Below, in pieces: positions 9,490-29,441 of a stretch of 64,000 nucleotides of DNA. The position numbers and the translations under genes are program-made. Within the stretch, counting starts at the first letter, position 1, and the number at the start of each line of letters is the position of its first letter. The notes under the pieces are model-generated. The model was not told where the DNA came from. It searched no databases and saw nothing but the letters and a program-made list of their open reading frames with translations. Source of the stretch: Clostridia bacterium (lineage in GTDB: Bacteria > Bacillota > Clostridia > Oscillospirales > CAG-272); the NCBI GenBank assembly GCA_017625065.1, contig JAGALS010000038.1, positions 7,139 through 71,138 of the forward strand, given 5' to 3'.

Positions 9490-9490
9490 T

Positions 9491-10426: not shown

Positions 10427-10446
10427 GAAAAAAGGAGGCGCAGAGA

Positions 10447-11139
10447 ATGGATCGCGCACAAGCATACGAAAAAATCTATTTCAATGACAATTATAAGGAA
10501 CAGTTCGAAGCATTGCGCAACCGTTACCATACCCGCACGCAAGAAGCTTTGCAGGGTAGAAAGGTAGACCATGCCCCTGTGCCGAACGCCACGACTATTG
10601 TATATCTGAACGACAATGGCGACGGTGATGTTTACGTTACTACGGGCGATTTTGTTGAATATTTCAATCGCCGCTTTGGCGGCTCTGACCGCATCGGCGC
10701 AATGCGTAGATCCCTTTCCGGCGCTGTTCGCAAAGCAGAGCTGTGCCGCGAGAGCAAAAAGGATCGCCGCGCTTCTGCATCCGAGACCCATCGCGAAAGA
10801 AGAAGCTTTCAGCCCCTGCGCTCCGTCAGATCCGGATTTTCCTTCCTGCATGCCGTGCTTGCTATGGTGCTGATCCTTTCTATCGGTATTCTTGGCGGAA
10901 CCTCTCTTCTGCTTGAGCGTGCTGAGGCTGAGGTTATGGCGCTTGAGGAGGAGGTCGCGATCCTGGAGGCGACCCACGGAACCTTGATGGTCGATCAGTA
11001 CAACGCCACCGCGATTGAGGATCAAGCATCTTATCCCGATATGTCGGGCGGTGACAGTGTTGAGATCTATCCTGCTGTAAAGGGTGGCGGCGTGGAAATG
11101 GCTTCTTTGCTGAACGCGCTTGCTTCACTTGGCAAATAA
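10447..11139 (+). CDS. FtsL-position bitopic membrane protein (atypical, 230 aa)
   Basis: RBS AAAGGAGG. There is a single TM helix (FSFLHAVLAMVLILSIGILGGTSLLL) followed by the heptad-like segment ERAEAEVMALEEEVAILEA. It sits between rsmH and the PBP gene, where ftsL normally lies. The N-terminal cytoplasmic region of about 130 aa is unusual. Confidence 0.5.
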   Translation: MDRAQAYEKIYFNDNYKEQFEALRNRYHTRTQEALQGRKVDHAPVPNATTIVYLNDNGDGDVYVTTGDFVEYFNRRFGGSDRIGAMRRSLSGAVRKAELCRESKKDRRASASETHRERRSFQPLRSVRSGFSFLHAVLAMVLILSIGILGGTSLLLERAEAEVMALEEEVAILEATHGTLMVDQYNATAIEDQASYPDMSGGDSVEIYPAVKGGGVEMASLLNALASLGK

Positions 11140-11257
11140 GGTCTAAATCCTGAAGAACACGAATAAAATATGGATGCGACGAACGTCGCTGTCCAACGGC
11201 GGAACTTGCCACTGGGGCAAGCTCCGCCTTTTCTTTTTTCAAAACGGAGGATCAGAT

Positions 11258-13498: not shown

Positions 13499-13507
13499 GA
13501 GGTGGCT

Positions 13508-14986
13508 ATGCAGTTAAGGGAGCTTCTTGAACAGGCAGGTTACGCAGTTCCTGCTCATTTAAGAGATCGCGAGATCACGGGCATTTCGTCGGATTCTCGT
13601 ACGGTGAAAGGGGGAAATCTTTTTGTTGCGATACAGGGACTTTCTCACGACGGCGGTCGTTTTGTCGGGCAAGCGCTTGAACGCGGCGCTGCTTTTGTGA
13701 TCTGTGAGCGATGCCTTGAAGGGGTAGAAGCGCTTGTAGTGGAAAATGCCCGTGCCGCGCTTGCGCGGTTGTTTGACGCCTGGTACGGGCACCCCGCCAA
13801 GGAGCTTTCGCTGATCGGGATTACGGGTACCAACGGTAAGACCTCCACGGCGGCAATGCTGTATGCGATATTGCGGCAATGCGGTTTTCCCTGTGGACTT
13901 ATCGGCACGGTGGAATGTCGCTTGAATGATCGGATATTGATCGCTCCAAACGACGATCGGCTTGCCAATATGACCACCCCCGATCCCGCACAGCTCTATG
14001 CGCTTCTGGCGCAGATGCGGGACGGCGGGGCAAAATACGTTTTGATGGAGGTCACCTCTCACGCGCTGGCCTTTTCCAAAGTAGCGCCCTTGCACTTTGC
14101 GCGAGCAGTGTTTACTAATCTCACCCCCGATCATCTGGATCTTCACGGCGATATGGAGAGCTATTTTGCCGAAAAGCGCAAATTATTTGATGCTTGCGAC
14201 GAAGCGGTGATCTCTTGCTCAACGCCGTACGGCGAACGCCTTGCGAATGGATTGGATATACCCTTGTGGCGCATCGATGGGCAAATCTTACAAGATCCCG
14301 TCCAAAATGGGAAGGATGGCGTGGCGTTCACACTTTCTCTTTTGGGAAAGACACCGCTTCGTATCGATCTGCCCGTCCCGGGGAGCTTTTCAATCGAAAA
14401 CGGTGCGCTGGCGGCGATGACAGCATTGAGCCTTGGCGTAAAGCCCGGGGTGATCCAATCGGCGCTTGCGGACTTTTCGGGGGTGAAGGGAAGGATGGAG
14501 CGCGTTGGCATAAATCCTTTTGGTATTTCGGTTTTTTTAGATTACGCGCACACGCCTGATGCGTTGGAAAAGCTATTGCGTACGGTGCGAGGCTTTTGCA
14601 CTGAAAACGAGCGCATCATCCTGATGTTTGGCTGTGGTGGCGATCGGGATCGAAGTAAGCGCGCCGAGATGGGAAGGATCGCTTCGCGGCTTGCCGATCT
14701 TGTGATCCTGACCTCGGATAACTGCCGCACCGAATCACCCGAACGAATTTTGTGTGATATTTTGAAAGGGATCGACAAAGAAAAGCCCTTTCGGGTATTG
14801 CCCGACCGCCAAAAAGCGATTGAATTTGCAATCGGAAATGCTAAACGCGGTGACGTGATCTTGCTTGTGGGCAAGGGGCACGAGGAATATGAGATCCGCG
14901 GCAGAGAGCGGCTTGTGTTTTGTGAGCGAGAGATCGTTGTATCTTGTATGGCGAAGCGAGCGGAGTGCGAAGCAGATGCGAATTAA
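13508..14986 (+). CDS. murE: UDP-N-acetylmuramoyl-L-alanyl-D-glutamate--2,6-diaminopimelate ligase
   Basis: Mur ligase P-loop GITGTNGKTST. The DNCR motif (SDNCRTE) is close to the DNPR motif typical of meso-DAP-adding MurE. dcw context. An alternative GTG start lies at 13502. Confidence 0.9.
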   Translation: MQLRELLEQAGYAVPAHLRDREITGISSDSRTVKGGNLFVAIQGLSHDGGRFVGQALERGAAFVICERCLEGVEALVVENARAALARLFDAWYGHPAKELSLIGITGTNGKTSTAAMLYAILRQCGFPCGLIGTVECRLNDRILIAPNDDRLANMTTPDPAQLYALLAQMRDGGAKYVLMEVTSHALAFSKVAPLHFARAVFTNLTPDHLDLHGDMESYFAEKRKLFDACDEAVISCSTPYGERLANGLDIPLWRIDGQILQDPVQNGKDGVAFTLSLLGKTPLRIDLPVPGSFSIENGALAAMTALSLGVKPGVIQSALADFSGVKGRMERVGINPFGISVFLDYAHTPDALEKLLRTVRGFCTENERIILMFGCGGDRDRSKRAEMGRIASRLADLVILTSDNCRTESPERILCDILKGIDKEKPFRVLPDRQKAIEFAIGNAKRGDVILLVGKGHEEYEIRGRERLVFCEREIVVSCMAKRAECEADAN

Positions 14987-16394
14987 ACTTTGCGAAATAC
15001 TGCGCGATCCCGTACTGCTTGCCGAGGCGTTGCAAGCAAAGCTGTTGGATACAAGCTATACCATAGGTGAGAAGGCACGCATCCAAGGGATCGCGACCGA
15101 TTCGCGCGAGGTGGAGGAAGGCGATCTTTTTGTTGCCCTGCGCGGAGAGCGCGAGGACGGAGTCGCCTATGTTTTCGATGCGCTTTCAAGAGGCGCTGTC
15201 GGTATTTTAAGCACCTCTGATGTATCGAGCATCGGCGAGAACGCTTTGTATTTTACGGCGGATGACCCCGTTGCGGCGCTGATGCGCGCCGCGGCTTGGC
15301 GGCGTCGGCAAAGCGATGCCTTTGTGATCGCCGTCGGGGGCAGCACGGGTAAGACCACCACAAAGGAAGCGCTGTCGATCCTTTTAAACGAAGCGGGCAG
15401 TGTAGCACGGACAGAGGGGAATTACAATAGCACGATCGGGCTGCCGCTCTCGATTTTATCCTTTGAGGAAGGCTACCGTTATTGGGTAACGGAGATTGGC
15501 ATCAATCACATCGGCGAAATGGAAGGAATGACGCGATCGGTATGTCCCGATCTTGCGATCCTGACCAACGTGGGAACGGCACATATCGGGCATTTCGGTG
15601 ATTTTTCGACCTTGCTTTACGAAAAAGCTAAGATTGCATCAAATCTTTCAAGCACAGGACTGCTGCTTGCTCCTGCCGAGCTGCCGATCAGCGCGTTTCC
15701 TTGCGCGCACGGTCGCATCAGACGTGTCGGAAATAGCAAAAACGCGGATTTTTATATGGAAAATGTTGTTATGAGCGAAAAGGGGATCAAGGGGGATTTG
15801 ATCTGTCCCGATCGGGTCATAACTAATCTTAATTGGTCTGTGCCGGGTGTGGTGGGGCTATCGACACTGACCACGGTTTCTGCGGCGGCGGTGCTTTGTG
15901 GCTGCGGTGATGAAATGATACGAAACGGACTGGGAAAGGCGTCGTTGCAAACGCCGCGGCTTCGCACCTTTTTACTTGGAGATCAACTGATCATAGACGA
16001 TACCTACAACGCTTCGCCCGAATCGGTCGCGGGCGCGCTCGAGGTGCTTTCTTATCGTGCCAAAGACCGACCGAGGGTGGCTGTGCTTGGCGATATGCTG
16101 GAGCTTGGAGAGCACAGTGAGATGCTGCATCAAGCGGTGGGGGAAGCTGTGGCGAAAGTGGGTGTTTCGATGCTGTTTACTTACGGCGATCAGACATTAC
16201 ACGTTGCCAAGGGAGCCAAAGCTTGCGGCATACACGCGGATATGATATTTTCCTTTGGAAGAGGGGAAGAAAGCGAACTTGCACAGGCGATATGCCGCCA
16301 CGCGCCGCGCTCTGCCGCGATCCTTTTCAAGGCATCCGGTAAAATGAGACTTGGAAAAATAGTTGAAATGATAGGGGAAAATGATGGGAGGTAG
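14976..16394 (+). CDS. murF: UDP-N-acetylmuramoyl-tripeptide--D-alanyl-D-alanine ligase
   Basis: P-loop GGSTGKTTTKE and the motif DDTYNASPES. The start overlaps the murE stop by 11 nt. The ORF-track start at 14865 would be an unsupported N-terminal extension. Confidence 0.9.
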   Translation: MRIKLCEILRDPVLLAEALQAKLLDTSYTIGEKARIQGIATDSREVEEGDLFVALRGEREDGVAYVFDALSRGAVGILSTSDVSSIGENALYFTADDPVAALMRAAAWRRRQSDAFVIAVGGSTGKTTTKEALSILLNEAGSVARTEGNYNSTIGLPLSILSFEEGYRYWVTEIGINHIGEMEGMTRSVCPDLAILTNVGTAHIGHFGDFSTLLYEKAKIASNLSSTGLLLAPAELPISAFPCAHGRIRRVGNSKNADFYMENVVMSEKGIKGDLICPDRVITNLNWSVPGVVGLSTLTTVSAAAVLCGCGDEMIRNGLGKASLQTPRLRTFLLGDQLIIDDTYNASPESVAGALEVLSYRAKDRPRVAVLGDMLELGEHSEMLHQAVGEAVAKVGVSMLFTYGDQTLHVAKGAKACGIHADMIFSFGRGEESELAQAICRHAPRSAAILFKASGKMRLGKIVEMIGENDGR

Positions 16395-16400
16395 ATCGTC

Positions 16401-17396
16401 TTGAACGTTGAGAGCTTATATACCGCTTTGGCACTGTTTGCAATGACCTTCTTGCTGACAGTTGTTTTTTCGCATTTTCTCATTCCCATATTGCGTCGCC
16501 ATCGGGCGGGGCAGCCCATTCTGGAGATTGGTCCCTCCTGGCATCTTTCCAAGGCGGGCACACCAACGCTTGGCGGACTTGCCTTTATCGTCGGGATCGG
16601 CGGGGCACTATTACTGTACGCGATATATCTGTTGTTGACCAAGGAGAGCAATTCGTTGCGTGCCTTGTCACTGATCTTTATTTACGGTGTGCTTTGCGGT
16701 GCGATCGGCTTTTTTGACGATTACCGCAAGCTCGTAAAAAAAGAAAATCAGGGGCTCAGCGCGCCGCAAAAATACTTGCTTTTGCTGCTTGCATCGGCAC
16801 TGTTTTTGTTCGCATCGCGTGTCGCTTTGCAGACCGACACCTCGATCGCGTTGCCGTTTGCCGATCGCTCCTTGGAGCTTGGCGTTTTTTATTATCCGCT
16901 TGCCTTGCTTTACCTTACGGGGCTTGTGAATGCGCTTAATCTTACCGACGGTGTAGATGGGTTGCTGTCCTCGACCGTTGCCGTTGTAGCTGCTTTTTTC
17001 CTGCTTTGGGGGTATAGTGAGGGCGAAGAAACAGCAGTCATCGTCGGCGCATTGCTGCTTGGTGCGACACTTGGCTTTCTTTGCTTCAATGCACACCCCG
17101 CAAAGGTCTTTATGGGCGATACGGGGTCGCTGTTTTTCGGCGGTGTGGTCTCAGCCGTTGGGATCGTGACCGAGCATCCCGTGCTTGTATTGCTTTCCTG
17201 CGGTGTTTTCGTGATTGAGGCGGGATCTGTGATCTTGCAAGTGATCTTTTTCAAGCTCTCGCACGGAAAGCGCCTGTTCCGCATGGCGCCCTTGCATCAT
17301 CATTTTGAAAAATGCGGATGGAGCGAATGGCGCGTGGTCGCGGTATTCTCTGCAGTCGGCGCACTCTTTTCTGCCGTGGCATTTTTGGGGAGGTGA
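16401..17396 (+). CDS. mraY: Phospho-N-acetylmuramoyl-pentapeptide transferase
   Basis: TTG start 9 nt after GGAGG. Polytopic membrane protein with the motifs NLTDGVDGL, FMGDTGSL and PLHHHFE. Confidence 0.92.
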   Translation: MNVESLYTALALFAMTFLLTVVFSHFLIPILRRHRAGQPILEIGPSWHLSKAGTPTLGGLAFIVGIGGALLLYAIYLLLTKESNSLRALSLIFIYGVLCGAIGFFDDYRKLVKKENQGLSAPQKYLLLLLASALFLFASRVALQTDTSIALPFADRSLELGVFYYPLALLYLTGLVNALNLTDGVDGLLSSTVAVVAAFFLLWGYSEGEETAVIVGALLLGATLGFLCFNAHPAKVFMGDTGSLFFGGVVSAVGIVTEHPVLVLLSCGVFVIEAGSVILQVIFFKLSHGKRLFRMAPLHHHFEKCGWSEWRVVAVFSAVGALFSAVAFLGR

Positions 17397-17401
17397 AGTG
17401 A

Positions 17402-18583
17402 GTGGAAGGATCCGTTGGCTTTCGTCAGCTTTTTTTCTCGGTTCGAGGAAAGGATAAAAATGAGCAGAAGGGAACACCCGATACGGTTTTTCTGTTGCTT
17501 GTGCTGCTGATGCTCGCTTGCGGTACTGTGATGTCTTACAGCGCAAGCTCTGTTTACGGAGAGCAGTTTTATAACGACAGCACCTATTTTTTGAAGCGCT
17601 ACGTCATTTTCGCGGTGCTTTCAATTTGCTTGAGCGCGCCCTTTGTGCTGTTCGCAAAGCCGGCGTTCTTTCGTGCCTTTGCCGTTTTTTTGTACAGCGC
17701 ATCGCTGTTTTTGCTGATCCTTGTATTGCTGATCGGTACGGTGGGGGGCGGCGCGCAGCGCTGGCTTGTGCTAGGGCCCATCACTTTGCAGCCATCCGAG
17801 GTTGCAAAGCTCGGGCTTGTGCTGATGCTCGCGCTTGTTATGAGCAAATACGAGGACAAGATCACCTCGCCGAAAAAACGGGGCGGCAGCATCCGCTATG
17901 GCGTGCTTTTGCCGGGTGCCCTGATCGGTGCTGTTTGTCTGCTGGTCGCCGCCGAAAAGCATATTTCGGGGCTTTTGATCATCGGTATGCTTGGCGTTGG
18001 CGTGATGTTCCTTGGTGGCACGCGCTTGCGCTATCTTGCCTTTATGGCGATCGCGGTGGCGGCGGCGGGAACGCTTTTGGTGCTTGTTTCTTCCTATGCT
18101 CAAGTGCGTGTGGATACGTGGCTACATATCGAGCAGGTCGATCCCCTGGGCTCGGCGTGGCAGACCCTACAGGGGCTTTATGCCATTGGTTCGGGAGGGC
18201 TGTTCGGTTTGGGACTTGGAAAGGGACGGCAAAAGCACGGATATGTGTCACAGCCGCAAAATGACTTTATCTTTACTGTGATCTGCGAGGAGCTTGGCTT
18301 CTTCGGTGCGCTTTTGATCCTGATCTTGTTCGTGCTTCTTGTCTTGCGCGGCTTTCGCATCGCTTCGCACGCACCCGATCGCTTCAGCGCGCTTGTGGTT
18401 TACGGGATCTCCTTAAAGCTTGCCCTGCAAACCATACTTAACGTGGCAGTGGTGACCAATTCTATGCCGAACACGGGGGTATCGCTCCCGTTTTTCAGCT
18501 CGGGCGGCACCTTTCTTGCTATGCAGATTTTTGAAATGGGGATCGTGCTGGCGATATCTCGTTACAGCACGCAAAAACGTTGA
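17402..18583 (+). CDS. ftsW: SEDS-family peptidoglycan glycosyltransferase FtsW/SpoVE
   Basis: GTG start 8 nt after GGGGAGG. Multi-TM protein with the motifs GAQRWL, LQPSEVAKL and PNTGVSLPFFSSGG. The start codon choice is uncertain. Confidence 0.85.
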   Translation: MEGSVGFRQLFFSVRGKDKNEQKGTPDTVFLLLVLLMLACGTVMSYSASSVYGEQFYNDSTYFLKRYVIFAVLSICLSAPFVLFAKPAFFRAFAVFLYSASLFLLILVLLIGTVGGGAQRWLVLGPITLQPSEVAKLGLVLMLALVMSKYEDKITSPKKRGGSIRYGVLLPGALIGAVCLLVAAEKHISGLLIIGMLGVGVMFLGGTRLRYLAFMAIAVAAAGTLLVLVSSYAQVRVDTWLHIEQVDPLGSAWQTLQGLYAIGSGGLFGLGLGKGRQKHGYVSQPQNDFIFTVICEELGFFGALLILILFVLLVLRGFRIASHAPDRFSALVVYGISLKLALQTILNVAVVTNSMPNTGVSLPFFSSGGTFLAMQIFEMGIVLAISRYSTQKR

Positions 18584-18584
18584 T

Positions 18585-19679
18585 ATGAGAATGATCGTGA
18601 CTTGTGGCGGTACGGGCGGACACATCACACCTGCCCTGGCGATTGCCGATACGGTGAAAATGAATGACCCGCACGCCGAGATCCTGTTTGTCGGCAGTGA
18701 GCGCGGTATGGAGAACACCTTGGTGAGGGAAGGGGGCTATGAGATGCAAACACTTCGGGTAGAGGGCATTTCGCGCAGCCTTTCACCCAAAAATTTTCGC
18801 GCTTTGTATTTTGCTGTGAGTGCCGTAGGGGAAGCGAAGCGGCTGATCCGCGCGTTTTTGCCCGACATCGTGATCGGTACGGGCGGATATGCCTGCTATC
18901 CCACCTTACGCGCGGCGGCGATGCTTAAAGTGCCTTGTGCCGTTCACGAATCCAATGCCGTTCCGGGGCTTGCCGTGAAGCGCCTTGCCGCCAAGGTGGA
19001 TCGGGTGTGGCTGAATTTCGATGCCGCCAAAAAGGAGCTGCCGAGGGCGGCAAAGACCTTAACGGTCGGCAATCCGTTGCCGATCGGTTACAGACAGGGC
19101 GGGGGAGCGCTGCGCCTGCCCGAAGGGTGCAACCGTATGGTGCTTTCATTTGGCGGCAGCCTTGGCGCAAGAGAGCTGAACCGTGCGGTGCTTGATCTGA
19201 TGGAGCGCGAGCGTGCTCTCGCGAACGTCTATCATTGCCACGCCACGGGAAAGCGCGAGTACGATCGCTTTTGTGTCGAATTTAAGGCGCGAGGGCTCAC
19301 GGAATGCCGGAATCTTGAGGTACTGCCCTTTATCAATGATATGCCGCGCCGTATGGCGGCGGCGGACGTGGTGATCTGCCGTGCGGGGGCGATGAGCATC
19401 AGTGAGATCGCCGCGGCAAAATGCGCCGCGGTGCTGATCCCCTCACCAAACGTGACGGGTGATCATCAGTATAAAAACGCAAAGGTCCTTGCCGATGCGG
19501 GAGCCGCTTGTCTTGTCAGTGAGGATCGTTTAAAGGACGGGGAACTTTGCGAAACGGTGCTATCGCTTCTTGACTCCAAAGAAAAGCGAAGAGCGCTTTC
19601 AAGCGCAGTTAGTGCCTTTGCCCACCCCCACGCAAATCGCTTGATATATGAGGATATCAAAAAGCTGATCAAACAATAA
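18585..19679 (+). CDS. murG: Undecaprenyldiphospho-muramoylpentapeptide beta-N-acetylglucosaminyltransferase
   Basis: MRMIVTCGGTGGHITPALAIA is the G-loop. The C-terminus has GAMSISEIAA and DHQYKNA. The start follows the ftsW stop directly. Confidence 0.9.
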   Translation: MRMIVTCGGTGGHITPALAIADTVKMNDPHAEILFVGSERGMENTLVREGGYEMQTLRVEGISRSLSPKNFRALYFAVSAVGEAKRLIRAFLPDIVIGTGGYACYPTLRAAAMLKVPCAVHESNAVPGLAVKRLAAKVDRVWLNFDAAKKELPRAAKTLTVGNPLPIGYRQGGGALRLPEGCNRMVLSFGGSLGARELNRAVLDLMERERALANVYHCHATGKREYDRFCVEFKARGLTECRNLEVLPFINDMPRRMAAADVVICRAGAMSISEIAAAKCAAVLIPSPNVTGDHQYKNAKVLADAGAACLVSEDRLKDGELCETVLSLLDSKEKRRALSSAVSAFAHPHANRLIYEDIKKLIKQ

Positions 19680-19780
19680 GAAAAGGTCGCGCATTGCCGA
19701 ATTTAAAGGAAAAATATCAGTTTTTCCCGACGGCGGTCGCGACCTGTCTTTTCTTTTTTGAAAAATATTTATAAAACATC

Positions 19781-19809
19781 TTGAAAAAGAGTGAAAAGTA
19801 TATTAAAAT
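19781..19809 (+). promoter_or_regulatory. Candidate ftsZ promoter
   Basis: TTGAAA, a 17-nt spacer, then TAAAAT. An overlapping TATAAT lies at 19809-19814. An AT-rich tract lies upstream. Confidence 0.45.
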
Positions 19810-19876
19810 ATAATAGATTAGTGTCCATACTTATGCGGCGCTTGCCGCACGTGTAAAAAAACGGAGGAATTACATT

Positions 19877-21115
19877 ATGACCTTTGAACCCGATAATAGT
19901 TTTGAAAGTGGCGTCGTCATTCGTGTCATTGGCGTAGGTGGCGGCGGCAATAATGCTGTCAACCGTATGATCGCGGCTAACATTCGCGGCGTTGAATTTG
20001 TGGCGGTGAATACCGACCGTCAGGCATTGCGTAAGTCTGATGCTCCCACACAAATGGTGATCGGTGAAAAGATCACCCGTGGCTTTGGCGCAGGTGCAAA
20101 CCCCGAGATCGGCGCGCGCTCTGCCGAGGAATCGATCGATGAGCTGAAAAAAGCGCTCAGCGGTGCTGATATGGTATTCGTCACAGCAGGTATGGGCGGC
20201 GGCACCGGTACGGGTGCGGCTCCTATCGTGGCACGTCTCGCGCACGAAATGGGCATTCTGACCATCGGTATCGTGACCAAGCCCTTCTCTTTTGAGGGCA
20301 AGCGCCGTATGGAGCAGGCAGAGCGCGGCATCAAGGAGCTTCGTCAGTACGTTGACTCTCTTGTGATCATCCCCAACGAAAAGCTCAAGGAGGTTTCGGA
20401 TACCCGTATCACCTTGGGTAACGCCTTTGAGATCGCCGACGACGTTCTGCGCCGCGGCGTGCAGAGCATTTCCGAGCTGATAAACGCGCCCGGATTCATT
20501 AACCTTGATTTTGCTGATGTTACATCTGTTATGAAGAACGCGGGCTATGCCCATATGGGTGTTGGCGGCGCTACAGGTGCCGACAAGGCAGAGCTTGCCG
20601 CAAAGGCGGCGATCTCCAGCCCGTTGCTTGAGACCTCGATCCACGGTGCGCGCGGTATCCTGATCAGTATCACCGCTTCTCACGACGTGGGACTTGAGGA
20701 CGTGGATCTTGCCTCCACAATGATCTCCAAGCACGCGCATCCCGATGCAAACGTCATTTGGGGACTTGCATTTGACGATTCTCTTGACGATGAAATGCGC
20801 GTGACCATCATCGCAACGGGCTTTGAAAACAAAGACGATCCCGAACCCGCTGCAGCCCCTGTCAAGGAGGTCGAGATCGATCAGATCGTTTTGGCTGACC
20901 CCGATCCTGCCCCCGTGGTAGAGGAGGCAGCTCCCGTTCTTGAGGCCGCACCCGTAGAGGAAGCTCCTGTTGCAGAGCCCGTGGCAGAGCCTGCACCTGT
21001 TGCGCACGCTCCCAAATACGACACCGCGGGCGAGGATTCTTCGATCTCCGAGGATGACTTCGACACGATCATGAGTATCTTCAAAAACCGCGCCCGCAGA
21101 GACGGTAACCGTTAA
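19877..21115 (+). CDS. ftsZ: Cell division GTPase FtsZ
   Basis: RBS GGAGG. The translation shows GVGGGGNNAVNRM, the tubulin signature GGGTGTGAAP and NLDFADV. The C-terminal linker is Pro/Ala/Glu-rich. Confidence 0.97.
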   Translation: MTFEPDNSFESGVVIRVIGVGGGGNNAVNRMIAANIRGVEFVAVNTDRQALRKSDAPTQMVIGEKITRGFGAGANPEIGARSAEESIDELKKALSGADMVFVTAGMGGGTGTGAAPIVARLAHEMGILTIGIVTKPFSFEGKRRMEQAERGIKELRQYVDSLVIIPNEKLKEVSDTRITLGNAFEIADDVLRRGVQSISELINAPGFINLDFADVTSVMKNAGYAHMGVGGATGADKAELAAKAAISSPLLETSIHGARGILISITASHDVGLEDVDLASTMISKHAHPDANVIWGLAFDDSLDDEMRVTIIATGFENKDDPEPAAAPVKEVEIDQIVLADPDPAPVVEEAAPVLEAAPVEEAPVAEPVAEPAPVAHAPKYDTAGEDSSISEDDFDTIMSIFKNRARRDGNR

Positions 21116-21432
21116 AATCCCGCGATACTTCGCTTCCACCTCCAATGCTCGGCTCGGAGTAGGTCACTACACCGTCGCCTGCGCGTTTCGGTGCGTACTT
21201 GTCTCACGCGATTTTAATCGGTTACCTCGGTACTGCTAAATCGCGCGATACTTCGCTTTCACCTCTAATGCTCGGCTCGGAGTAGGTTACTACACCGTCG
21301 CCTGCGCGTTTCGGTGCGTACTTGTCTCACGCGATTTTAATCGGTTACCTCGGTACTGCTAAATCCCGCGATACTTCGCTTCCACCTCCAATGCTCGGCT
21401 CGGAGTAGGTTACTACACCGTCGCCTGCGCGT
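21115..21432. repeat. Noncoding 123-bp tandem repeat, 2.6 copies
   Basis: Units start at 21115, 21238 and 21361, and the last is truncated at about 21432. Units differ at only 4 positions. There are stop codons in all six frames of each unit. The repeat begins inside the ftsZ stop codon. Confidence 0.95.
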
Positions 21433-21442
21433 TAAAGAAAAT

Positions 21443-21484
21443 AAAATTGCCGCAAATGCATTTCGCATTTGCGGCAATTTTTTG
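21443..21484. terminator. Bidirectional rho-independent terminator shared by ftsZ and alaS
   Basis: Perfect 14-bp stem ATTGCCGCAAATGC / GCATTTGCGGCAAT with a 5-nt loop, flanked by AAAA on one side and TTTTT on the other. It lies between two convergent genes. Confidence 0.9.
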
Positions 21485-21491
21485 TTTGTGA

Positions 21492-24137
21492 TTATTTCAA
21501 CTGATCCTGCAGCAGGGAAGCGGCGCTTGCAAGCGCTTCGTCAACCTTAGCGGCGTCCTTGCCGCCTGCCATAGCATTGTCGGGACGTCCACCGCCCTTA
21601 CCGCCTGTGATAGCGGCAACAGCGCCCACCAGCTTGCCGGCGTGTGCGCCTGCGGCAACGGCATCCTTACCGGCAATGGCAAGGAATTTCACGTCTGCGC
21701 CGTTTACAGCGGCGATCACGGCAACGGTATCGGGGCAGCTTGCCTTAATATCGTCTGCAAGGCTGCGCGCCACGTCAAGCTGCATACCGTCAAAGCGTAC
21801 GGCGGCAAGCTTCACGTTGCCGATCGCAACAGCTTCCTTCAAAAGCTCGTCCTTCTTAGAGCCTGCAAGCTTTGCGTTCAAGGCATCCAGCTCACGGTGC
21901 ATAGCCTTCAGCTCGTCCTGAAGCTGAGCGGCACGCTTGGCGACGTCAGCGACATTCTGTGCCTTCAGGGCATCAGCGGTATTGGAAAGTAGCTGCTCCT
22001 TGCTATCCAGCAGATGAAGCACACCAAAGCCGGTGCAAGCCTCGACACGGCGTACGCCTGCGGCAACGGAGGTCTCGGAAACGATTTTGAAAAGTCCAAT
22101 GCGAGCGGTGTTATCCATATGCGTACCGCCGCAAAGCTCAGTGGAGAAGTTGCCCATACGGACAACGCGGACAGTCTTGCCGTATTTTTCGCCGAACAGT
22201 GCCATTGCGCCAAGCTTCTTGGCTTCATCCAGGGGCATTTCGGTCATTGTGATCGGCAGACCGGAGAAGATGTGCGCGTTGACAAGCGTTTCGACCTTGG
22301 CGATTTCCTCGGCAGTCATTGCGGCAAAGTGCGTAAAGTCAAAGCGACACTTTTCGCTGTCCACAAGCGAGCCTGCCTGCTCGACGTGCGTGCCAAGCAC
22401 GGCGCGAAGTGCTGCCTGCAACAGATGCGCGACCGAGTGGTTGCGCGCGATCGCCTCACGGTAAGCACCGTCGATGCGAGCGCAGACCTTATCGCCGACC
22501 TTCAGACTGCCCGACACCATCGTGCAAAGGTGCAGATAGATGCCGTCGGTCTTTTTGGTGTCGCGTACGTTCATCAAAAGAGCAGGGGAGGAGAGCGTAC
22601 CGCGGTCACCGACCTGGCCGCCGCCCTCGCCGTAAAATACGGTCTTGTTCAGGATCACGGTGCAATCGCCCTCGGTGATCTCGTTCACGGCACGTGCGCC
22701 GTCCTCGTCCTCAACGATGATGGCAAGCACCTCGGCGTCATCGGTGCGGAAGCTGTCATAGCCGCGGAAAATAGTCTGCGGCAGATCGCCAAGCAAGGAC
22801 TTGGTGGCGTTATCCCAGCCGCTGACATTGCCACGTGCGGCACGTGCGCGCTCGCGCTGGTCCTTCATCAGCTTCTTAAAGGTCTCCTCATCGATATCCA
22901 GATGATTTTCGGCAAGAATCTCCTTGGTCAGATCAAGCGGGAAGCCAAAGGTATCGTAAAGCTTGAAGGCATCCTCGCCCGAAAGATCCTTTCTGCCTGT
23001 CTTGATGGCATCGCGGATCATATTGGAAAGGATAGAAAGACCGGCATCGATGGTCGCATCGAAGCGCTCCTCCTCCATTGAAATAACCTTGAGGATGTAG
23101 TCCTGCTTTTCGGCAAGCTCGGGGTATGCGTCCTTGTTCTCGCCGATGGCGACCACGCACAGCTCGGAGAGGAAGGGACGGTTGATGCCCAGCAGCTTTC
23201 CGTGGCGGCAGGCGCGGCGGATGATACGGCGCAGCACGTAGCCGCGACCCTCGTTGGAGGGAATGACACCGTCAGCGATCATAAACATCGAGCTCTTGAT
23301 GTGGTCGGTGCAAACGCGGATCGAAATATCGTTGTTCTTGTCCTCGCCGTAGGTCTTGTCTGCGATCGCGCAGACCGTGTCAAGGATCTTGCGGATGCTA
23401 TCGACCTCAAACATATTGTCAACGCCCTGCATCACGCACGCAAGACGCTCCAGGCCCATACCGGTATCGATGTTTTTCTGTACCAGCTCGGTATAATTGC
23501 CGTTGCCGTCGTTGTTGAACTGCGAGAAGACGTTGTTCCAGATCTCCATAAAGCGGTCGCAGTCACAGCCGGGGCGGCAGTCGGGCGAGCCGCAGCCGTA
23601 CTTGATGCCGCGGTCAAAATAGATCTCGGAGCAGGGACCGCAGGGACCTGTGCCGTGCTCCCAGAAGTTGTCCGCCTTGCCAAGCTTTGTGATGCGCTCG
23701 GCGGGCACGCCGATCACCTTGTTCCAAAGCTCAAATGCTTCGTCATCCTGCTCGTAAACAGAGGGCCAAAGCAGCTCGCCGGGGATCTCAAGTGTTTTGG
23801 TCAGGAACTCCCAAGCCCACGGGATCGCCTCGTTTTTGAAATAATCGCCAAACGAGAAGTTGCCCAGCATTTCAAAGAAGGTGCCGTGGCGGGCGGTGTG
23901 TCCCACGCGCTCAAGGTCGGGGGTGCGGATGCACTTCTGGCAGGTGGTCACACGGTTGCGGGGGGGCTCCTCCTCACCCGTGAAATATTTTTTCATAGGC
24001 GCCATACCCGAATTGATCAGCAAAAGAGATTTATCGTTGATCGGCACAAGAGGGAAGGAAGGCAGGCGCAAATGCCCCTTCGACTCAAAAAAGGAAAGAT
24101 ATTTTTCGCGCAGTTCGTTAAGAGACGTCCATTTCAT
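21492..24137 (-). CDS. alaS: Alanine--tRNA ligase
   Basis: 881 aa. The translation shows FFESKGH, the class II core FEMLGNFSFGDYFK, the editing-domain HxxxH (HSVAHLL), CGGTH, and a C-terminal DHHA1-like GGKGGGRP segment. Confidence 0.97.
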   Translation of the reverse strand: MKWTSLNELREKYLSFFESKGHLRLPSFPLVPINDKSLLLINSGMAPMKKYFTGEEEPPRNRVTTCQKCIRTPDLERVGHTARHGTFFEMLGNFSFGDYFKNEAIPWAWEFLTKTLEIPGELLWPSVYEQDDEAFELWNKVIGVPAERITKLGKADNFWEHGTGPCGPCSEIYFDRGIKYGCGSPDCRPGCDCDRFMEIWNNVFSQFNNDGNGNYTELVQKNIDTGMGLERLACVMQGVDNMFEVDSIRKILDTVCAIADKTYGEDKNNDISIRVCTDHIKSSMFMIADGVIPSNEGRGYVLRRIIRRACRHGKLLGINRPFLSELCVVAIGENKDAYPELAEKQDYILKVISMEEERFDATIDAGLSILSNMIRDAIKTGRKDLSGEDAFKLYDTFGFPLDLTKEILAENHLDIDEETFKKLMKDQRERARAARGNVSGWDNATKSLLGDLPQTIFRGYDSFRTDDAEVLAIIVEDEDGARAVNEITEGDCTVILNKTVFYGEGGGQVGDRGTLSSPALLMNVRDTKKTDGIYLHLCTMVSGSLKVGDKVCARIDGAYREAIARNHSVAHLLQAALRAVLGTHVEQAGSLVDSEKCRFDFTHFAAMTAEEIAKVETLVNAHIFSGLPITMTEMPLDEAKKLGAMALFGEKYGKTVRVVRMGNFSTELCGGTHMDNTARIGLFKIVSETSVAAGVRRVEACTGFGVLHLLDSKEQLLSNTADALKAQNVADVAKRAAQLQDELKAMHRELDALNAKLAGSKKDELLKEAVAIGNVKLAAVRFDGMQLDVARSLADDIKASCPDTVAVIAAVNGADVKFLAIAGKDAVAAGAHAGKLVGAVAAITGGKGGGRPDNAMAGGKDAAKVDEALASAASLLQDQLK

Positions 24138-24176
24138 AAGAGATGCCTTTCATTATTTAAAATAATATTGCATTTT

Positions 24177-24206
24177 ATTATATCACCAGCGCAGGGGAAC
24201 TGTCAA
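24177..24206 (-). promoter_or_regulatory. alaS promoter
   Basis: On the minus strand: TTGACA, an 18-nt spacer ending in TGa, then TATAAT. It lies about 40 nt upstream of the alaS ATG. Confidence 0.6.
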
Positions 24207-24331
24207 GATGCTTTTTCGCCTTTTATGTGAAAAGCTGTTTGCTTTTTTGTTATATATGTCGAAAATAACCAAAGATTTTTGTAAAAATGGATGAAAAACG
24301 GTGATCCTGACGTGGGAAGTCCAAATATCTC

Positions 24332-24360
24332 TTGCAATTTTTGTTAAAAAACAGTATAAT
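24332..24360 (+). promoter_or_regulatory. Promoter of MBL-lipoprotein paralog 1
   Basis: TTGCAA, a spacer of exactly 17 nt, then TATAAT. Confidence 0.65.
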
Positions 24361-24400
24361 GAATGTAAATACATTTATATTTTCAAAGGGGGGAAATATA

Positions 24401-26770
24401 ATGAAAAGAACACTCAGCCTTTTGTTGTGTCTTGTGATGATACTCTCGTGTGTGACCTTCCTTTTTTCTTGTAAGAAGGATGAGGATGATGATTCCATTG
24501 ACGAGGCACAGGGGATTGATCTGACAGGATATTCTATCATTAGAGGCAAAGAGCTGACCGAGTCGGGCAAGCAATTTGTGCTTGATTTCGCGAAAAAAGC
24601 ATCCAGTGTAACTTCGGTCGATATGAATGTGGGCGATGACACAAACGATGATGTGGTAAAAAGTAAGGATCTTGAGATCCTGATCGGTGTGACCAGCCGC
24701 GAGGAATCCACCAAGACCTATAACGAGATCAAAGGGAGCGGTTGGGCAGTTCGTGCCTTTAAGCACAAAATTGCGATCGTTGGCACGACGCCTTATTTGA
24801 CCACGGTGGCACTCAGCTGGTTTGAACGGACCTATCTGAATGCTGAACACGTAAACGGCACGACCCTGACGATGCAGGAAAAGTATGTGGTGTCTGATCT
24901 GCCTATCCTTTCTCTTGCTGAAAACAGCACGACCTTTGCGGTTGTGTATGAAACGGGCAGGGATTCGAATACTGCCCCCCATCAGATCGGCAGCAAGGTC
25001 TGCGAAAGTCTTTTGCAAAAGACCGGGCTTACGGCACAGTTTATCACAGCAGATGCCGAGGTCTCCCAAAAAGCGATCCTGGTCGGTAATATGAGCCGTC
25101 CCGACGTGAAGGAGGAAATGGCGAAGATCGAGGCGGATGAGTATGCCGTTACGGTCAAGGATAACACGGTCTATTTGGTCGCGTGGAGCGATGTCGTTCT
25201 TCCCGCAGCGTACGACCTGTTTGAGGAAATGCTGTTTGCCTCGGCTTTGACCGATGCAAACGGAAACGTGGTATCGTACAACATCCCCGGTAACTGCACA
25301 GTCGTTAAAAAATATGTAAGCGATTGGTTTACCGATTTCCCCAAGCCTGTGGCGCAGGGACTTTATCCCGAGGCGGCGGTAGATGTAAATGACGGTAGCC
25401 TTCAGTATATTTACGCCGGTGACGGTGCGACGCGCGACACCTTTGTGGCGTATTGCGAGACCTTAAAGGCGGCCGGATATACGCCTATGGGTAATGAGGA
25501 TGTGCAATGGGAGGGAAGCAGCTTCCGCACCTTTGTCAATAACGAGAAGGGCGTATCCTTGCACGTTTCTCACATGGCGTTTACGCATGCCGAGGAGCAA
25601 GGAGTAGATCTTTTTAAAAATAGCATCCGCATTGTATCCGGTCATACGGAATGGGGCGGGACATTGGTTAACGAGCAGTATTTCAGACCGCAGGTCGAGG
25701 GCGTGGATTATATTGACAAAATGGATTCTCAGATCACCTCTAATCTGATCGATTACAGTGCAAGCGGGAACTGGGGACTTGGACAGATCCTGACGCTTGC
25801 CGACGGTAGCTTTATCGTCATTGACGGCGGCAAAAACAAGACCTCGGATGACACCGCCAATCTTTGGGAAATTATGTGTGAGATGCACAAAAAGGCGTGG
25901 GGAAGCAAACCTACCAAGGATAACCCCGTTCATATCAGAGCGTGGATCATCACACATGAGCACGGCGATCATATCGATCTTGTGCGGAGCTTTTGCGATC
26001 AGTACGGCCCCAAGGCAGAGCTGAAGTTTGATTATATGATGGTGAATTTCGGTTCTCGTTCACAGCTTCCCATAGGATGGGGAAATACAGGTCTTAGGGA
26101 CAGCTTAAAAGCTTTTCAGGATAAGGTTAAAAATGGTTTTGAGTACATTCAGATAAGTACCGGACAGGTGTTTTACTTCGCAAACTGCAGACTTGAATTT
26201 TTGGCAACTATTGATGATTGGGCTATTGGAAACACAACCGGTGATCACAATGAAACCTCTACGATCTTCCGCACCGCCTTGATCGAATATGATGATCAGG
26301 GTAACCCGCACGAGACCACCTCCATGTGGACGGGAGATGCCAGATGGCATTTGAGCAGGGCGGCGCGTGCCATGTACGGCAGCTTTTTAAAGAGTGATCA
26401 GGTACAGATCTCGCATCACGGTCTTTACGGCGTTGAAGGAAAGTTCTACGATCTTGTGGGCGCTGAGCTGATATGGCTGCCCGATTCGGTCAACCAAGGT
26501 GTGGCTGATCGATTCTACCTTATCCTCAGCAATCCGAATACGGGCTATACCGTTTCTACAGCTTTTTTGAATCAGAACACCAAATATCTGATCTTTAACG
26601 GCTCCAATTACACCGATTACCCCATGTGGAGCACGACTCTGACGATTTCCGCTGAGGGACCCAAGTATAACGCGATGTATGATGCCACCTCCGGTGAAAG
26701 CATACAGGCAAAGGCTGAGCTGTGGCCTGTGATCGATGTCCCCGCTTATCGAGCGGCTAATGGAAGGTAA
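24401..26770 (+). CDS. Lipoprotein paralog 1 with C-terminal ComEC-type MBL-fold domain
   Basis: RBS AAGGGGGGA. The lipoprotein signal is MKRTLSLLLCLVMILSCVTFLFSC. MBL motifs are LADGSFIVIDGG, ITHEHGDH (25955-25972), MWTGDA and QISHHG. It is colinear with the next three genes. Confidence 0.85.
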   Translation: MKRTLSLLLCLVMILSCVTFLFSCKKDEDDDSIDEAQGIDLTGYSIIRGKELTESGKQFVLDFAKKASSVTSVDMNVGDDTNDDVVKSKDLEILIGVTSREESTKTYNEIKGSGWAVRAFKHKIAIVGTTPYLTTVALSWFERTYLNAEHVNGTTLTMQEKYVVSDLPILSLAENSTTFAVVYETGRDSNTAPHQIGSKVCESLLQKTGLTAQFITADAEVSQKAILVGNMSRPDVKEEMAKIEADEYAVTVKDNTVYLVAWSDVVLPAAYDLFEEMLFASALTDANGNVVSYNIPGNCTVVKKYVSDWFTDFPKPVAQGLYPEAAVDVNDGSLQYIYAGDGATRDTFVAYCETLKAAGYTPMGNEDVQWEGSSFRTFVNNEKGVSLHVSHMAFTHAEEQGVDLFKNSIRIVSGHTEWGGTLVNEQYFRPQVEGVDYIDKMDSQITSNLIDYSASGNWGLGQILTLADGSFIVIDGGKNKTSDDTANLWEIMCEMHKKAWGSKPTKDNPVHIRAWIITHEHGDHIDLVRSFCDQYGPKAELKFDYMMVNFGSRSQLPIGWGNTGLRDSLKAFQDKVKNGFEYIQISTGQVFYFANCRLEFLATIDDWAIGNTTGDHNETSTIFRTALIEYDDQGNPHETTSMWTGDARWHLSRAARAMYGSFLKSDQVQISHHGLYGVEGKFYDLVGAELIWLPDSVNQGVADRFYLILSNPNTGYTVSTAFLNQNTKYLIFNGSNYTDYPMWSTTLTISAEGPKYNAMYDATSGESIQAKAELWPVIDVPAYRAANGR

Positions 26771-27016: not shown

Positions 27017-27065
27017 AATAATGGATATTTATTTATAAAAAATGAACATAGAGGAGAATACGTCA

Positions 27066-29441
27066 ATGAAAAAAACATTGAGCTTGCTTTTGTGCTTTGT
27101 TTTACTGCTTTCATCGGTAGCCTTTCTTTTTTCCTGTAAAAAAGAGGAAGACACGCCCCCCGTCGTCAGCGATGTATATGACATCGATTTGACGGGATAT
27201 TCGGTTATTCTGGGTGTGGAGTTGACCGATCTTGTCATTCAACAAGCATACACTTTTGCCAGAAATGTATCCAAATTGACAACGGTCGATATGAGCGTGG
27301 TCGATGATGCGATCGGTGATGTGGTCAAAACCAAGGATCCCGAAATTTTGATCGGTGTGACGACTCGTGAGGAATCGATCAAGACCTATAACGAGATCAA
27401 GGGCAACGGATGGGCGGTGAGCGTGTTCGAGCATAAGATCGCTATCGTTGGCACGACCCCGTATCTGACCGCCGTGGCGCTCGGCTGGTTTGAGCGAACC
27501 TATCTCAATGCCGAGCACGTGAACGGAACCACCTTGTCTGTGCAAGCCAAAAATGTTGTATCTGACCTACCGACCTTGTCCTTGACCGAAAAGGAAGGTG
27601 AGACGTATACGACCTTTACAGTCGTTTACGAGAAGGGAAAGGATGCGAACGACGCGTCTCACCAGGTTGCTACGATGGTCAGTGGTAGCCTTTCGGAAAA
27701 AACAGGACTGGAACCATCCTTCGTCACCGCTGACACCGAGGCGGCATCCAGAGAGATCCTGGTCGGCAATATGAGCCGCCCTGACGTGAAGGAGGAAATG
27801 GCAAAGATCGAGGCAGACGAGTATGCCGTGACCATCAAGGATAGCAAGATCTATTTGGTGGCGTGGAGCGACGAGGTCCTGCCTTCGGCATATGAGCTGT
27901 TCCAGGAAATGCTCTTCGCTTCATCTTTGACCGATGAAGCGGGCAATACGACGTACACCATTCCCTCGAATTGCACACTGGTAAAGAAATATACAAGCGA
28001 TTGGGTCACCGATTTCCCCAAGCCCGTGGCAGAGGGACTTTACCCCGAGGCAGCGGTGGATGCAAATGACGGGGCGCTTCAGTACATTTATGCCGGTCCC
28101 GGTGCTACGCGCGAGACCTTTGTGGCATATTGCGAGACCTTGAAGGCGGCTGGATATACACCTATGGGTAACGAGGATGAACAGTGGGAGGGAAGTAGCT
28201 TCCGCACCTTTGTTAACAATGAAAAGGATGTTTCTTTGCACGTGTCTCATATGGCGTTTTCACACGCCGAGGAGATGGAGGTAAAGGATTTGCCAAACAG
28301 CATCCGTGTCGTGTCCGGCTCTACAAAGTGGGGCGGTACCCAGGTCGATGCACAGTACTTCAGACCCCAGGTCGAGGGCGTTGATTACATCAAGAGAACG
28401 AATTCCAAGATTACGTCTAATCTGCTTGTGTACGGTGATAACGGCAACTGGGGACTTGGACAGGTCATCACACTTGCAGACGGAAGCTTTATTATTATCG
28501 ACGGCGGAAGAGACTATAGTGGAGAAGATACGGATAATCTCTGGGATCTGTTGCGCGAAATGCACAAAGAGACATATGGATCCTATCCCAGCAAGGATAT
28601 CCCACTTCATATCAGAGCATGGATCGTTACCCATGAGCACGGAGATCATCATAATATTGTTCAAAATTTCTGTAATAAGTACGGTTCAAAAGTCGAGGTG
28701 CGATTTGACTATCTTTTGGCCAATCTCGGCTCATTGACTCAGCTGCGTACAGCCGGTGGTACATATAGCCTTAGAAGCAACATAAAAAAATATCAGGATA
28801 CCGTGAAGAACGGCTTTGAGTATATTCAAGTGAATACCGGTCAGGTCTTTTATTTTGCAAATTGCAGACTTGAGATCTTGCACACTATCGATGATATCTA
28901 TCCTTGGAGATGCTCGGAGACCAACAATGCGAATACCGTTACCCGTACCTTCTTGTATGAAAGTGATGGCGTAAATACCCACACGACGTCCTCGCTGTGG
29001 CTTGGTGACGCGGAAATGCAGGCAAGCCGAGCATCGCTCGCTATGTACGGCTCCTTCCTTTCCAGTGATCAGGTGCAGGTCGCTCACCACGGTAACAACG
29101 GTGGCTCCGATAAACGGATATATGAGATGGTAGCTGACAAATGTTCGGTTATTTGGTATCCCAACTGTGTAAGCAAGTCTGCCCTTGATAGAGCATTGCG
29201 CGGCGATTGGGGCTGTAATTTCAGCGCAGCATTTAAAAATCCCAATTGCAAGCTGATGATCTTTAACGGCTCTATATATGGGGGCGAGTATAAAATGTGG
29301 AACGTGACCTTAAAGATCACGGCTACAGGTCCTTTGTACGATCAATTATACAATCCTGTCAGCGGTGAACATATTGAGGCCAAGGGAGAAGTGTGGCCTG
29401 CGGTAGACGTTCAGGCATATATAGCCGCAGTCGGAAAATAA
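27066..29441 (+). CDS. Lipoprotein paralog 2 with C-terminal ComEC-type MBL-fold domain
   Basis: RBS AGAGGAGAA. The signal is MKKTLSLLLCFVLLLSSVAFLFSC. MBL motifs are LADGSFIIIDGG, VTHEHGDHHN (HEHGDH at 28632-28649), LWLGDAE and QVAHHGNNGGS. Confidence 0.85.
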   Translation: MKKTLSLLLCFVLLLSSVAFLFSCKKEEDTPPVVSDVYDIDLTGYSVILGVELTDLVIQQAYTFARNVSKLTTVDMSVVDDAIGDVVKTKDPEILIGVTTREESIKTYNEIKGNGWAVSVFEHKIAIVGTTPYLTAVALGWFERTYLNAEHVNGTTLSVQAKNVVSDLPTLSLTEKEGETYTTFTVVYEKGKDANDASHQVATMVSGSLSEKTGLEPSFVTADTEAASREILVGNMSRPDVKEEMAKIEADEYAVTIKDSKIYLVAWSDEVLPSAYELFQEMLFASSLTDEAGNTTYTIPSNCTLVKKYTSDWVTDFPKPVAEGLYPEAAVDANDGALQYIYAGPGATRETFVAYCETLKAAGYTPMGNEDEQWEGSSFRTFVNNEKDVSLHVSHMAFSHAEEMEVKDLPNSIRVVSGSTKWGGTQVDAQYFRPQVEGVDYIKRTNSKITSNLLVYGDNGNWGLGQVITLADGSFIIIDGGRDYSGEDTDNLWDLLREMHKETYGSYPSKDIPLHIRAWIVTHEHGDHHNIVQNFCNKYGSKVEVRFDYLLANLGSLTQLRTAGGTYSLRSNIKKYQDTVKNGFEYIQVNTGQVFYFANCRLEILHTIDDIYPWRCSETNNANTVTRTFLYESDGVNTHTTSSLWLGDAEMQASRASLAMYGSFLSSDQVQVAHHGNNGGSDKRIYEMVADKCSVIWYPNCVSKSALDRALRGDWGCNFSAAFKNPNCKLMIFNGSIYGGEYKMWNVTLKITATGPLYDQLYNPVSGEHIEAKGEVWPAVDVQAYIAAVGK

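Follow-up and report, generated by a model that had tools for sequence, protein, structure and literature searches.

The division gene ftsZ of an uncultured Clostridia/Oscillospiraceae organism is followed, in the 64,000-nt stretch of contig JAGALS010000038.1 (assembly GCA_017625065.1) analyzed here and called the window below, by a 123-nt sequence repeated head to tail. We found that the repeated unit is a structured module, which is under selection and occurs at a single locus, attached to the ftsZ stop codon. Our interpretation, to which we assign a probability of about 55%, is that the repeat represents tandem copies of a structured RNA module specific to this lineage, residing in the 3′ untranslated region (UTR) of ftsZ and acting after transcription. 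Comparison with relatives newly identifies the 123-nt unit as a shortened version of a conserved single-copy element of ~200 nt whose predicted closing helix includes the ftsZ stop codon.

Sequence and Predicted Fold of the Repeat

Tandem Repeats Finder delimited the array at 21115–21433 (period 123, 2.6 copies, 96% matches, no indels, score 610), by a wide margin the strongest repeat of the window; a 31-nt piece of the unit gave three matches in the window vs. 0.00 expected from 100 shuffles. These results confirmed the preliminary description of this DNA, made from the sequence without database searches, which had reported a repeat of this period and copy number starting at the ftsZ stop. 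The four variant sites distributed in a mosaic, also reported there, were recovered in the alignment of the units: differences are confined to positions 6 (C/G), 22 (C/T), 29 (C/T), and 51 (C/T), with unit 3 identical to unit 1 at the first three of these and to unit 2 at site 51. Similarity between units reaches ~13 nt leftward into the last ftsZ codons (ACGGTAACCGTTAAAATC vs. TCGGTACTGC-TAAATC), indicating that the duplicated segment took in the stop codon region. Unit 3 ends at 21433, 9 nt short of the stem of the transcription terminator; it is followed by AAAGAAAATAAAA and then by the terminator. Despite a period that is a multiple of 3, the repeat is non-coding, as had been proposed. Every unit has stops in each of the six frames, no open run exceeds 40 codons, and no frame is conserved in relatives; a peptide-coding repeat was thus rejected. 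A CRISPR array was rejected as well, since the 123-nt copies are contiguous and lack unique spacers.

The repeat proved to be structured, with a fold well below that of shuffled sequences for the array (z = −6.8) and for the long form of the element from the relative L009 (z = −5.9), and with a consensus fold that shows covariation. In this RNAalifold consensus, obtained from seven short units, a closing helix (P1) with an outer and a middle part encloses a small hairpin (GCGA-UACU-UCGC), a 4-bp helix P2 (CACC/GGUG), and hairpin A, a 44-nt bulged hairpin of the composition AAUGCUCGGCUCGGAGUAG-loop-CUACACCGUCGCCUGCGCGUU. On the plus strand, unit 1 is a short form extending over 21102–21229 (covariance-model match of 149.6 bits, RNAalifold, and pair counts). 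Its outer P1 pairs 21105–21111 with 21219–21225 and its middle P1 pairs 21113–21120 with 21209–21216, while the small hairpin occupies 21122–21133, P2 joins 21137–21140 to 21190–21193, and hairpin A spans 21144–21187. Unit 2 (21230–21352, plus strand; 121.3 bits and unit alignment) is likewise a short form, with hairpin A at 21267–21310. Unit 3 (21354–21433, plus strand; model match 21354–21471, 70.8 bits) is incomplete: it has the 5′ arm of P1, the small hairpin, and hairpin A (21390–21433), and no 3′ arm of P1. An incomplete unit of this kind is the sole copy in three relatives (L001, L122, and L017).

The 5′ arm of P1 in unit 1 is formed by the last four ftsZ codons together with the stop codon (21104–21115; inverted repeats I4 and I7), and its partner segment sits ~100 nt downstream of the gene end. 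Each unit carries a long imperfect palindrome, in which GGTAACCGTTAAAATCCCGCGATAC (21104–21128), which takes in the final four codons of ftsZ, its TAA, and 13 nt beyond, pairs with GTCTCACGCGATTTTAATCGGTTACC (21201–21226). The G at position 6 of unit 2 restores a P1 pair where unit 1 has a C-C mismatch, and the variant sites as a whole map to this P1 mismatch, to unpaired positions beside P2, and to the apical loop of hairpin A.

In the long form of ~200 nt, seen in several relatives, hairpins B (UUUGCUUUGCAAAGUGAUGUCGUUUAGACAUCAAGCAAA) and C (CCUCGUCGCAGACGAGG) follow hairpin A and precede the 3′ strand of P2. Removal of B and C, by a deletion lying between two GGTG direct repeats, gives the short form, from which we take the 123-nt unit of the window to be a reduced derivative of the conserved element. 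The single ~200-nt long form is the ancestral-looking state.

Three further candidates within the fold were rejected. A mini-open reading frame (ORF) in hairpin A (AUG CUC GGC UCG GAG UAG) has no ribosome-binding site and is absent from L008. An anti-Shine-Dalgarno role of the P2 sequence CACCUCC toward the GGAGG of ftsZ would involve 5 complementary nt only, and the motif is not kept: L006 and L009 have CACUUCC, and unit 2 of the window has CACCUCU. Finally, the minus strand of hairpin C resembles a CRISPR repeat (...GACGAGGAUUGAAAU); it is present in a single copy, forms no array, and has no Rfam CRISPR match.

Architecture of the Element in Relatives

Relatives were assembled by fetching contigs that encode close FtsZ homologues and by scanning 185,579 GTDB species genomes for the hairpin A pattern, and they are designated by L numbers; the organism itself is known from ruminant and other animal gut metagenomes. 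Those from ENA assemblies include L001 (ERZ27256931), L002 (ERZ28654132), and L013 (ERZ28633944), and L122 is GCA_017462105.1. In the following, percentages give FtsZ identity to the window, and S and L denote the short and the long form. The window and L002 (100%) have two S units and an incomplete unit. In L004 (100%) the order is S1, S2, S2, followed by the contig end, and L001 (100%) and L122 (one residue different) have an incomplete unit only, i.e., 0.6 copy. L006 (96%) contains S, S, a gap of Ns, S, and a 20-nt stub; L118/L119 (93%) contain S and a stub. A single L unit whose hairpin A differs in sequence was found in L008 (94%), and at least two units of this type, with a gap of Ns, in L007 (94%). 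L009/L010 (92%) have L and a stub, while L011, with the same FtsZ as L009 (92%), has S and then the contig end. L013–15 (89%) carry L, L120/L121 (86%) carry S with a degenerate 3′ arm, and L017 (86%) carries an incomplete unit. For the remaining contigs we found S in L018, S and L in L022 (84%), and S, S, L, then the contig end, in L023.

In all 13 element-bearing lineages or variants examined the element begins at the ftsZ stop, so that the upstream neighbor is constant. The downstream neighbor is not: the window, L009, and L022 have alaS there, L013 has a DeoR-family gene, and L017 a co-directional leucine-rich repeat (LRR) gene. Whatever gene lies beyond, a terminator follows the element in every lineage whose contig continues. 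The element is therefore tied to ftsZ and not to alaS, as the preliminary description had argued, since it starts at the ftsZ stop even where DeoR or LRR genes are found next to it.

The element is absent from relatives at 82–85% FtsZ identity (L105–110, L111, and L112–117). Four relatives at ≤73% identity that were read past the ftsZ stop (L027–L030) have a terminator or unrelated sequence there and gave no covariance-model match. In L105 only TTAAATTGCG is left after the stop codon, which could be the trace of a lost copy. A pattern scan of JGI metagenomes returned 0 matches, and a subsequent FtsZ-based scan gave mostly distant relatives. From this distribution, the element is young, narrow in range, and patchy among uncultured ruminant-gut Clostridia. 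As a separate observation, all six contigs shown for L105–L110 (85%) end at the same base, 82 nt past the ftsZ stop and just after a TTGACA...TATAAT promoter; identical ends suggest that a repeated sequence probably follows, perhaps an rRNA or tRNA operon.

Variation in Copy Number

The same or a one-residue-different FtsZ is accompanied by differing arrays: the window and L002 have 2.6 copies, L004 has at least 2.9 in the order 1-2-2, and L001 and L122 have 0.6. Copy number thus varies between strains from 0.6 to at least 2.9, and the recombination between units that had been suspected from the mosaic is supported, as such differences beside near-identical FtsZ sequences indicate that the array changes by unequal recombination. 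Variant site 51 is T in L001 and C in L122, so the two deletions that led to 0.6 copy had different crossover points. One and the same FtsZ sequence is found in L009 and L011, yet the former has a long and the latter a short unit. Moreover, the window/L006/L009 group, L022, and L023 each have a linker sequence of their own between units, which indicates that duplication happened more than once. We also observed that from ~2880 onward, past the shared terminator, the sequence of L122 is unlike the window and does not reach alaS, which points to a rearrangement beside the array.

Several contigs end inside the element (L003, L005, L012, L016, L123, and L124) and two scaffolds have gaps of Ns inside the array (L006 and L007); copy numbers taken from short-read assemblies are for this reason uncertain. 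Such breaks would also be expected if the repeat itself were an artefact of short-read metagenome assembly. We regard this as very improbable, given that the identical 2.6-copy sequence was recovered from an independent sample (L002), that distinguishing variants fix the order of the units, and that arrays are present in several species and in the output of several assemblers.

A Single Locus and No Known Family

A covariance model built from the short units found three adjacent copies only in the 64-kb window, post-ftsZ copies only in close relatives, and no match in 88 loci from element-less or more distant relatives. In the hairpin A scan (596 Gb in total), four genomes were true matches, with one locus each, and on every contig that extends as far as ftsZ this locus immediately follows the gene; the four genomes are incomplete metagenome-assembled ones. 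Three other matches, in a spirochaete, a Marinobacter, and a verrucomicrobium, were dismissed as chance, as they share no further similarity with the element. BLAST searches of phages and plasmids and scans of viral contigs revealed nothing similar. A common dispersed element of the repetitive extragenic palindrome (REP) or miniature inverted-repeat transposable element type had been named beforehand as the finding that would undo the link to ftsZ. What we found instead was one locus per genome, after ftsZ, and we rejected a dispersed or mobile element on the basis of the window, 88-locus, genome, phage, plasmid, and viral scans. The arms at 21104–21128 and 21201–21226 do form terminal inverted repeats that are 82–86% complementary. 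Since the left arm belongs to the coding sequence of ftsZ and its changes are matched by changes in the right arm, a selected helix fits better than transposon ends.

In the window and in L006, L008, L009, L013, and L017, no Rfam 15 family reached its gathering score. Permissive Rfam scans (E up to 10; window 20900–21700 and L009 4200–4530) gave chance-level matches, almost all of them centered on the terminator hairpin. The best of these, trpB, scored 28–36 bits vs. a gathering score of 59 and was rejected, since it reflects a hairpin-plus-terminator shape only. 6S RNA, considered in view of the ~200-nt closed rod of the long form, was rejected for want of a match, and a ToxI-like type III toxin-antitoxin repeat was rejected as the unit is 123 nt long and is flanked by ftsZ and alaS.

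Conservation and Covariation

Four-fold degenerate sites of ftsZ are 50–62% identical between the window and its element-bearing relatives, whereas the first 78 nt of the element are 84–92% identical; the exception is L008 with 68%, in which hairpin A has been replaced. The hairpin A core alone is 87–100% identical vs. 50–82% at the third positions of the last 22 ftsZ codons. The accumulation of synonymous changes up to the stop codon, while hairpin A is kept, argues against neutrality as well as against a recent transfer of the whole region.

The RNAalifold fold of the short units (alignment A2) comprises 38 pairs, seven of which show compensatory double changes. Altogether 91% of the alignment cells are paired, vs. 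33–48% when the partners are slid by 1–3 columns, and the observed covariation score was reached by none of 500 column shuffles. The outer P1 tracks the coding sequence: where FtsZ ends in GNR (GGT AAC CGT) the arms are GGTAACCG/CGGTTACC, and where it ends in NRR (AAT CGC CGT) they are TCGCCG/CGGCGA. In L008 the sequence of hairpin A is replaced and its bulged-rod architecture kept. The apical loop of hairpin A is variable (GUCA, GUUA, AUCG, AUAA, and AAA).

These data bear on whether the array has any function. It might be the remnant of a hairpin-forming insertion or inverted duplication, neutrally duplicated and kept palindromic at the DNA level, which would suit the narrow and patchy distribution with apparent losses, the extreme instability in copy number down to the 0.6-copy strains, and the resemblance of the terminal arms to the inverted repeats of a miniature transposable element; quasi-palindrome correction could then imitate covariation. 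The element is, however, far more conserved than the synonymous sites up to the stop, shows no mobility, each genome having one locus whose position is shared by all species, and has no phage, plasmid, or viral match. We consider a functionless array quite unlikely.

Presumed Transcription of the Array

The ftsZ gene (412 aa; ORF list, Pfam Tubulin and FtsZ_C) occupies 19877–21115 on the plus strand. It is preceded by a candidate promoter, TTGAAA-17-TAAAAT, at 19781–19809 on the plus strand, identified by consensus match alone (consensus scan, 10 of 12 matches), which is the presumed start of the repeat-bearing transcript. Convergent with ftsZ is alaS (21492–24137, minus strand; Pfam tRNA-synt_2c, tRNA_SAD, and DHHA1), a neighbor lying outside the element. 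Between the array and alaS we found a bidirectional intrinsic terminator hairpin common to ftsZ on the plus and alaS on the minus strand (21438–21487; inverted repeat I1 and terminator scan), with an A-run before and a T-run after the stem. The terminator scan called hairpin 21443–21481 on both strands as the sole strong terminator, in agreement with the earlier proposal of one terminator downstream of the repeat and shared by the two genes. As the stop codon of ftsZ is itself part of the element, there is no room for a terminator between the two. With none before the array and one always after it, the modules are presumably carried on the ftsZ mRNA, and judging from position the array would be transcribed as the ftsZ 3′ UTR. 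It also seems more likely that the sense strand is the functional one than the minus strand.

In L022 only, the codons used for the C-terminal peptide of FtsZ give rise to a good promoter-like site, TTGACA-17-AAAAAT (3973–4001, plus strand), which lies ~25 nt ahead of the element and could let the array be transcribed on its own in this species.

Proposed Role and Alternative Explanations

In the interpretation that we favor, an ancestral-looking element of ~200 nt, with P1 enclosing the small hairpin, P2, and hairpins A, B, and C, would have lost B and C between the GGTG repeats to yield the 123-nt unit, and head-to-tail duplication followed by unequal homologous recombination would have given 0.6 to ~3 or more copies. 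Transcribed as part of the ftsZ mRNA, the modules may then act post-transcriptionally, either as a determinant of processing or stability or through hairpin A as a platform for a protein or an RNA. The number of modules would set the dose, with hairpin A copies ranging from one to at least three. Because P1, a 15–25-bp duplex, contains the stop codon, ribosomes terminating at the end of ftsZ would have to open it; P1 may in addition be a target for a double-strand-specific RNase.

A number of points weigh against this interpretation. The distribution is patchy, and absence from L105–117 indicates that the element is not essential for division. P1 is dispensable, as strains with 0.6 copy cannot form it. 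The compensatory changes rest on roughly two clades and hence few independent lineages, and template-switch correction of quasi-palindromes could mimic some of the covariation. The stems of hairpin A are invariant in canonical sequences and so say nothing for or against pairing. Consensus folds are more stable on the minus strand, at −41.6 vs. −31.5 kcal/mol for the short and −54.5 vs. −45.0 kcal/mol for the long form. Inner P1 has about five one-sided G/A changes, which give C-A or A-C on the plus strand and G-U on the minus strand. Moreover, transcription, strand, and an effect on FtsZ expression are all inferences.

The last observations on the two strands raise the possibility that the functional molecule is an antisense RNA read from the minus strand, with a mirror-image fold, which overlaps the ftsZ stop and base-pairs with ftsZ mRNA. 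Apart from the ~10 kcal/mol gain in stability and the inner-P1 changes, none of which gives a G-U pair on the plus strand, such an RNA would be in keeping with a weak candidate minus-strand promoter in each linker of the window (TTAGCA-17-TAAAAT, 21211–21239, with a second copy at 21334–21362; 9 of 12 matches in the scan). In L009, L013, and L022, however, the minus strand showed no promoter-like site, and a weak terminator read on this strand within the end of ftsZ is not kept among relatives, its T-run being missing in L013 and L023. Two terminators separate the element from convergent transcription in L013, and in L017 the next gene is co-directional. The plus strand, too, carries strand-specific wobble pairs of its own: hairpin A has a U-G that never changes among the seven A2 short units, and further U-G pairs are present in hairpin B (L023) and hairpin C (L014). 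Taken together, we view an antisense RNA as unlikely.

The modules might also be the source of a trans-acting RNA, either as processed RNAs of ~100–200 nt, released for example by cuts in P1, or as a multi-site sponge acting via hairpin A; additional units would then increase the dose. Hairpin A is kept in sequence and not just in pairing, as is usual for RNAs that bind one fixed partner. In its minimal form (L001, L017, and L122) the element consists of hairpin A and then the terminator, like the small RNAs (sRNAs) made from mRNA 3′ ends (PMC9438474), and independent duplications in several lineages fit selection for dose. On the other hand, no internal promoter is conserved, the promoter-like site within the 3′ end of ftsZ being restricted to L022, and the apical loop of hairpin A varies freely. 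We hold this origin of a trans-acting RNA, the main alternative, to be possible, if rather doubtful, and a module acting within the ftsZ 3′ UTR is the interpretation that we retain.

Comparison With Known RNA Elements

The element shares with downstream-element orphan motifs a conserved structured non-coding sequence located just after one gene and a suspected role in cis as part of a 3′ UTR; it differs from them by its tandem arrays and by the stop codon within its closing helix. One such motif, ‘ftsZ-DE,’ was reportedly described by Weinberg et al. in 2017; a literature search on ftsZ-DE and on ftsZ 3′ UTR elements retrieved nothing. If ftsZ-DE is included in Rfam 15, the window element gave no match to it.

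REP/BIME, ERIC, and Correia repeats are similar in being imperfect palindromes that form RNA hairpins behind stop codons, sometimes in tandem, and their hairpins can alter mRNA stability or RNase III processing. They are dispersed, with tens to hundreds per genome, whereas the ftsZ module occupies one locus and its sequence is kept across species. Tandem riboswitches, CsrB/RsmZ sponges, and ToxI repeats also consist of head-to-tail structured units whose number sets the dose. Tandem riboswitches are found in 5′ UTRs, CsrB-type sponges expose GGA loop motifs, and ToxI units of ~36 nt lie beside a toxin gene. In contrast, the loop of hairpin A is variable rather than a GGA motif, and the neighbors of the array are ftsZ and alaS rather than a toxin gene. 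As for sRNAs from mRNA 3′ ends, such as CpxQ, SdhX, and NarS, the likeness lies in a conserved RNA between a stop codon and its own terminator (PMC9438474). The known ones are without a tandemly multiplied 123-nt module, and the ftsZ element is compatible with this class by architecture alone; no ftsZ-derived 3′-end sRNA is found in that review (PMC9438474). In its working, the element seems closest to other RNA motifs conserved downstream of a gene and to the hairpin repeats of 3′ UTRs, and it is a member of none of the families tested.

Genomic Neighborhood

The ftsZ gene closes a division and cell-wall cluster at 9395–21115 on the plus strand of the window, comprising rsmH (mraW), a penicillin-binding protein/ftsI gene with PASTA domains, murE, murF, mraY, ftsW, murG, and ftsZ; neither ftsQ nor ftsA lies between murG and ftsZ. 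The ftsZ leader carries a hairpin, in addition to the gene’s own promoter-like site. An ORF of 458 aa runs antisense to the whole of ftsZ (19769–21145, minus strand), with a TTG start within repeat unit 1. We rejected it as a gene: it is interrupted in L008, L009, and L118, and is a codon-usage shadow because ftsZ uses no TTA, CTA, or TCA codons. No Rfam family was detected at gathering score anywhere in the 64 kb, and this includes the absence of a T-box in the 194-nt region upstream of alaS (24138–24331).

Beyond alaS there are four tandem paralogous ORFs of ~790–812 aa on the plus strand (24332–26770, 27042–29441, 29484–31847, and 32124–34520), the first two of which are 63% identical. Their N-termini are lipoprotein-like (..LFSCKK), and a HEHGDH motif is reminiscent of metallo-beta-lactamase folds; there was no Pfam match. 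GC content in this region is 0.46–0.49 vs. 0.53–0.57 in the flanks, which suggests that it may be an acquired gene family expansion. Two adjoining giant ORFs of 1216 and 1479 aa are present at 617–8751 on the plus strand, with the Lamin Tail Domain as the only Pfam match.

Significance

The lack of an Rfam match, conservation above that of silent sites, and some covariation make the element a well-supported candidate for a new RNA family, with a narrow range and unusual copy-number dynamics. In practical terms, the locus breaks short-read assemblies of ruminant-gut Clostridia, and copy numbers reported there are not to be trusted. The amount of FtsZ is tightly coupled to the size of the cell and the timing of its division. 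The RNA-based control known for ftsZ, e.g., that by DicF, targets the 5′ end (PMC9438474). If our interpretation is true, a copy-variable module at the ftsZ stop would be an unusual form of 3′-end tuning of an essential gene. More speculatively, and with low expectation that all parts will hold, the element may represent an undescribed class of modular RNA joined to the stop of the master gene of cell division, in which P1, opened by ribosomes, would couple ftsZ translation either to what becomes of the ftsZ mRNA or to the release of a hairpin A RNA that titrates a division regulator, and in which recombination between the units would provide strains with a heritable and quickly adjustable dosage of FtsZ.

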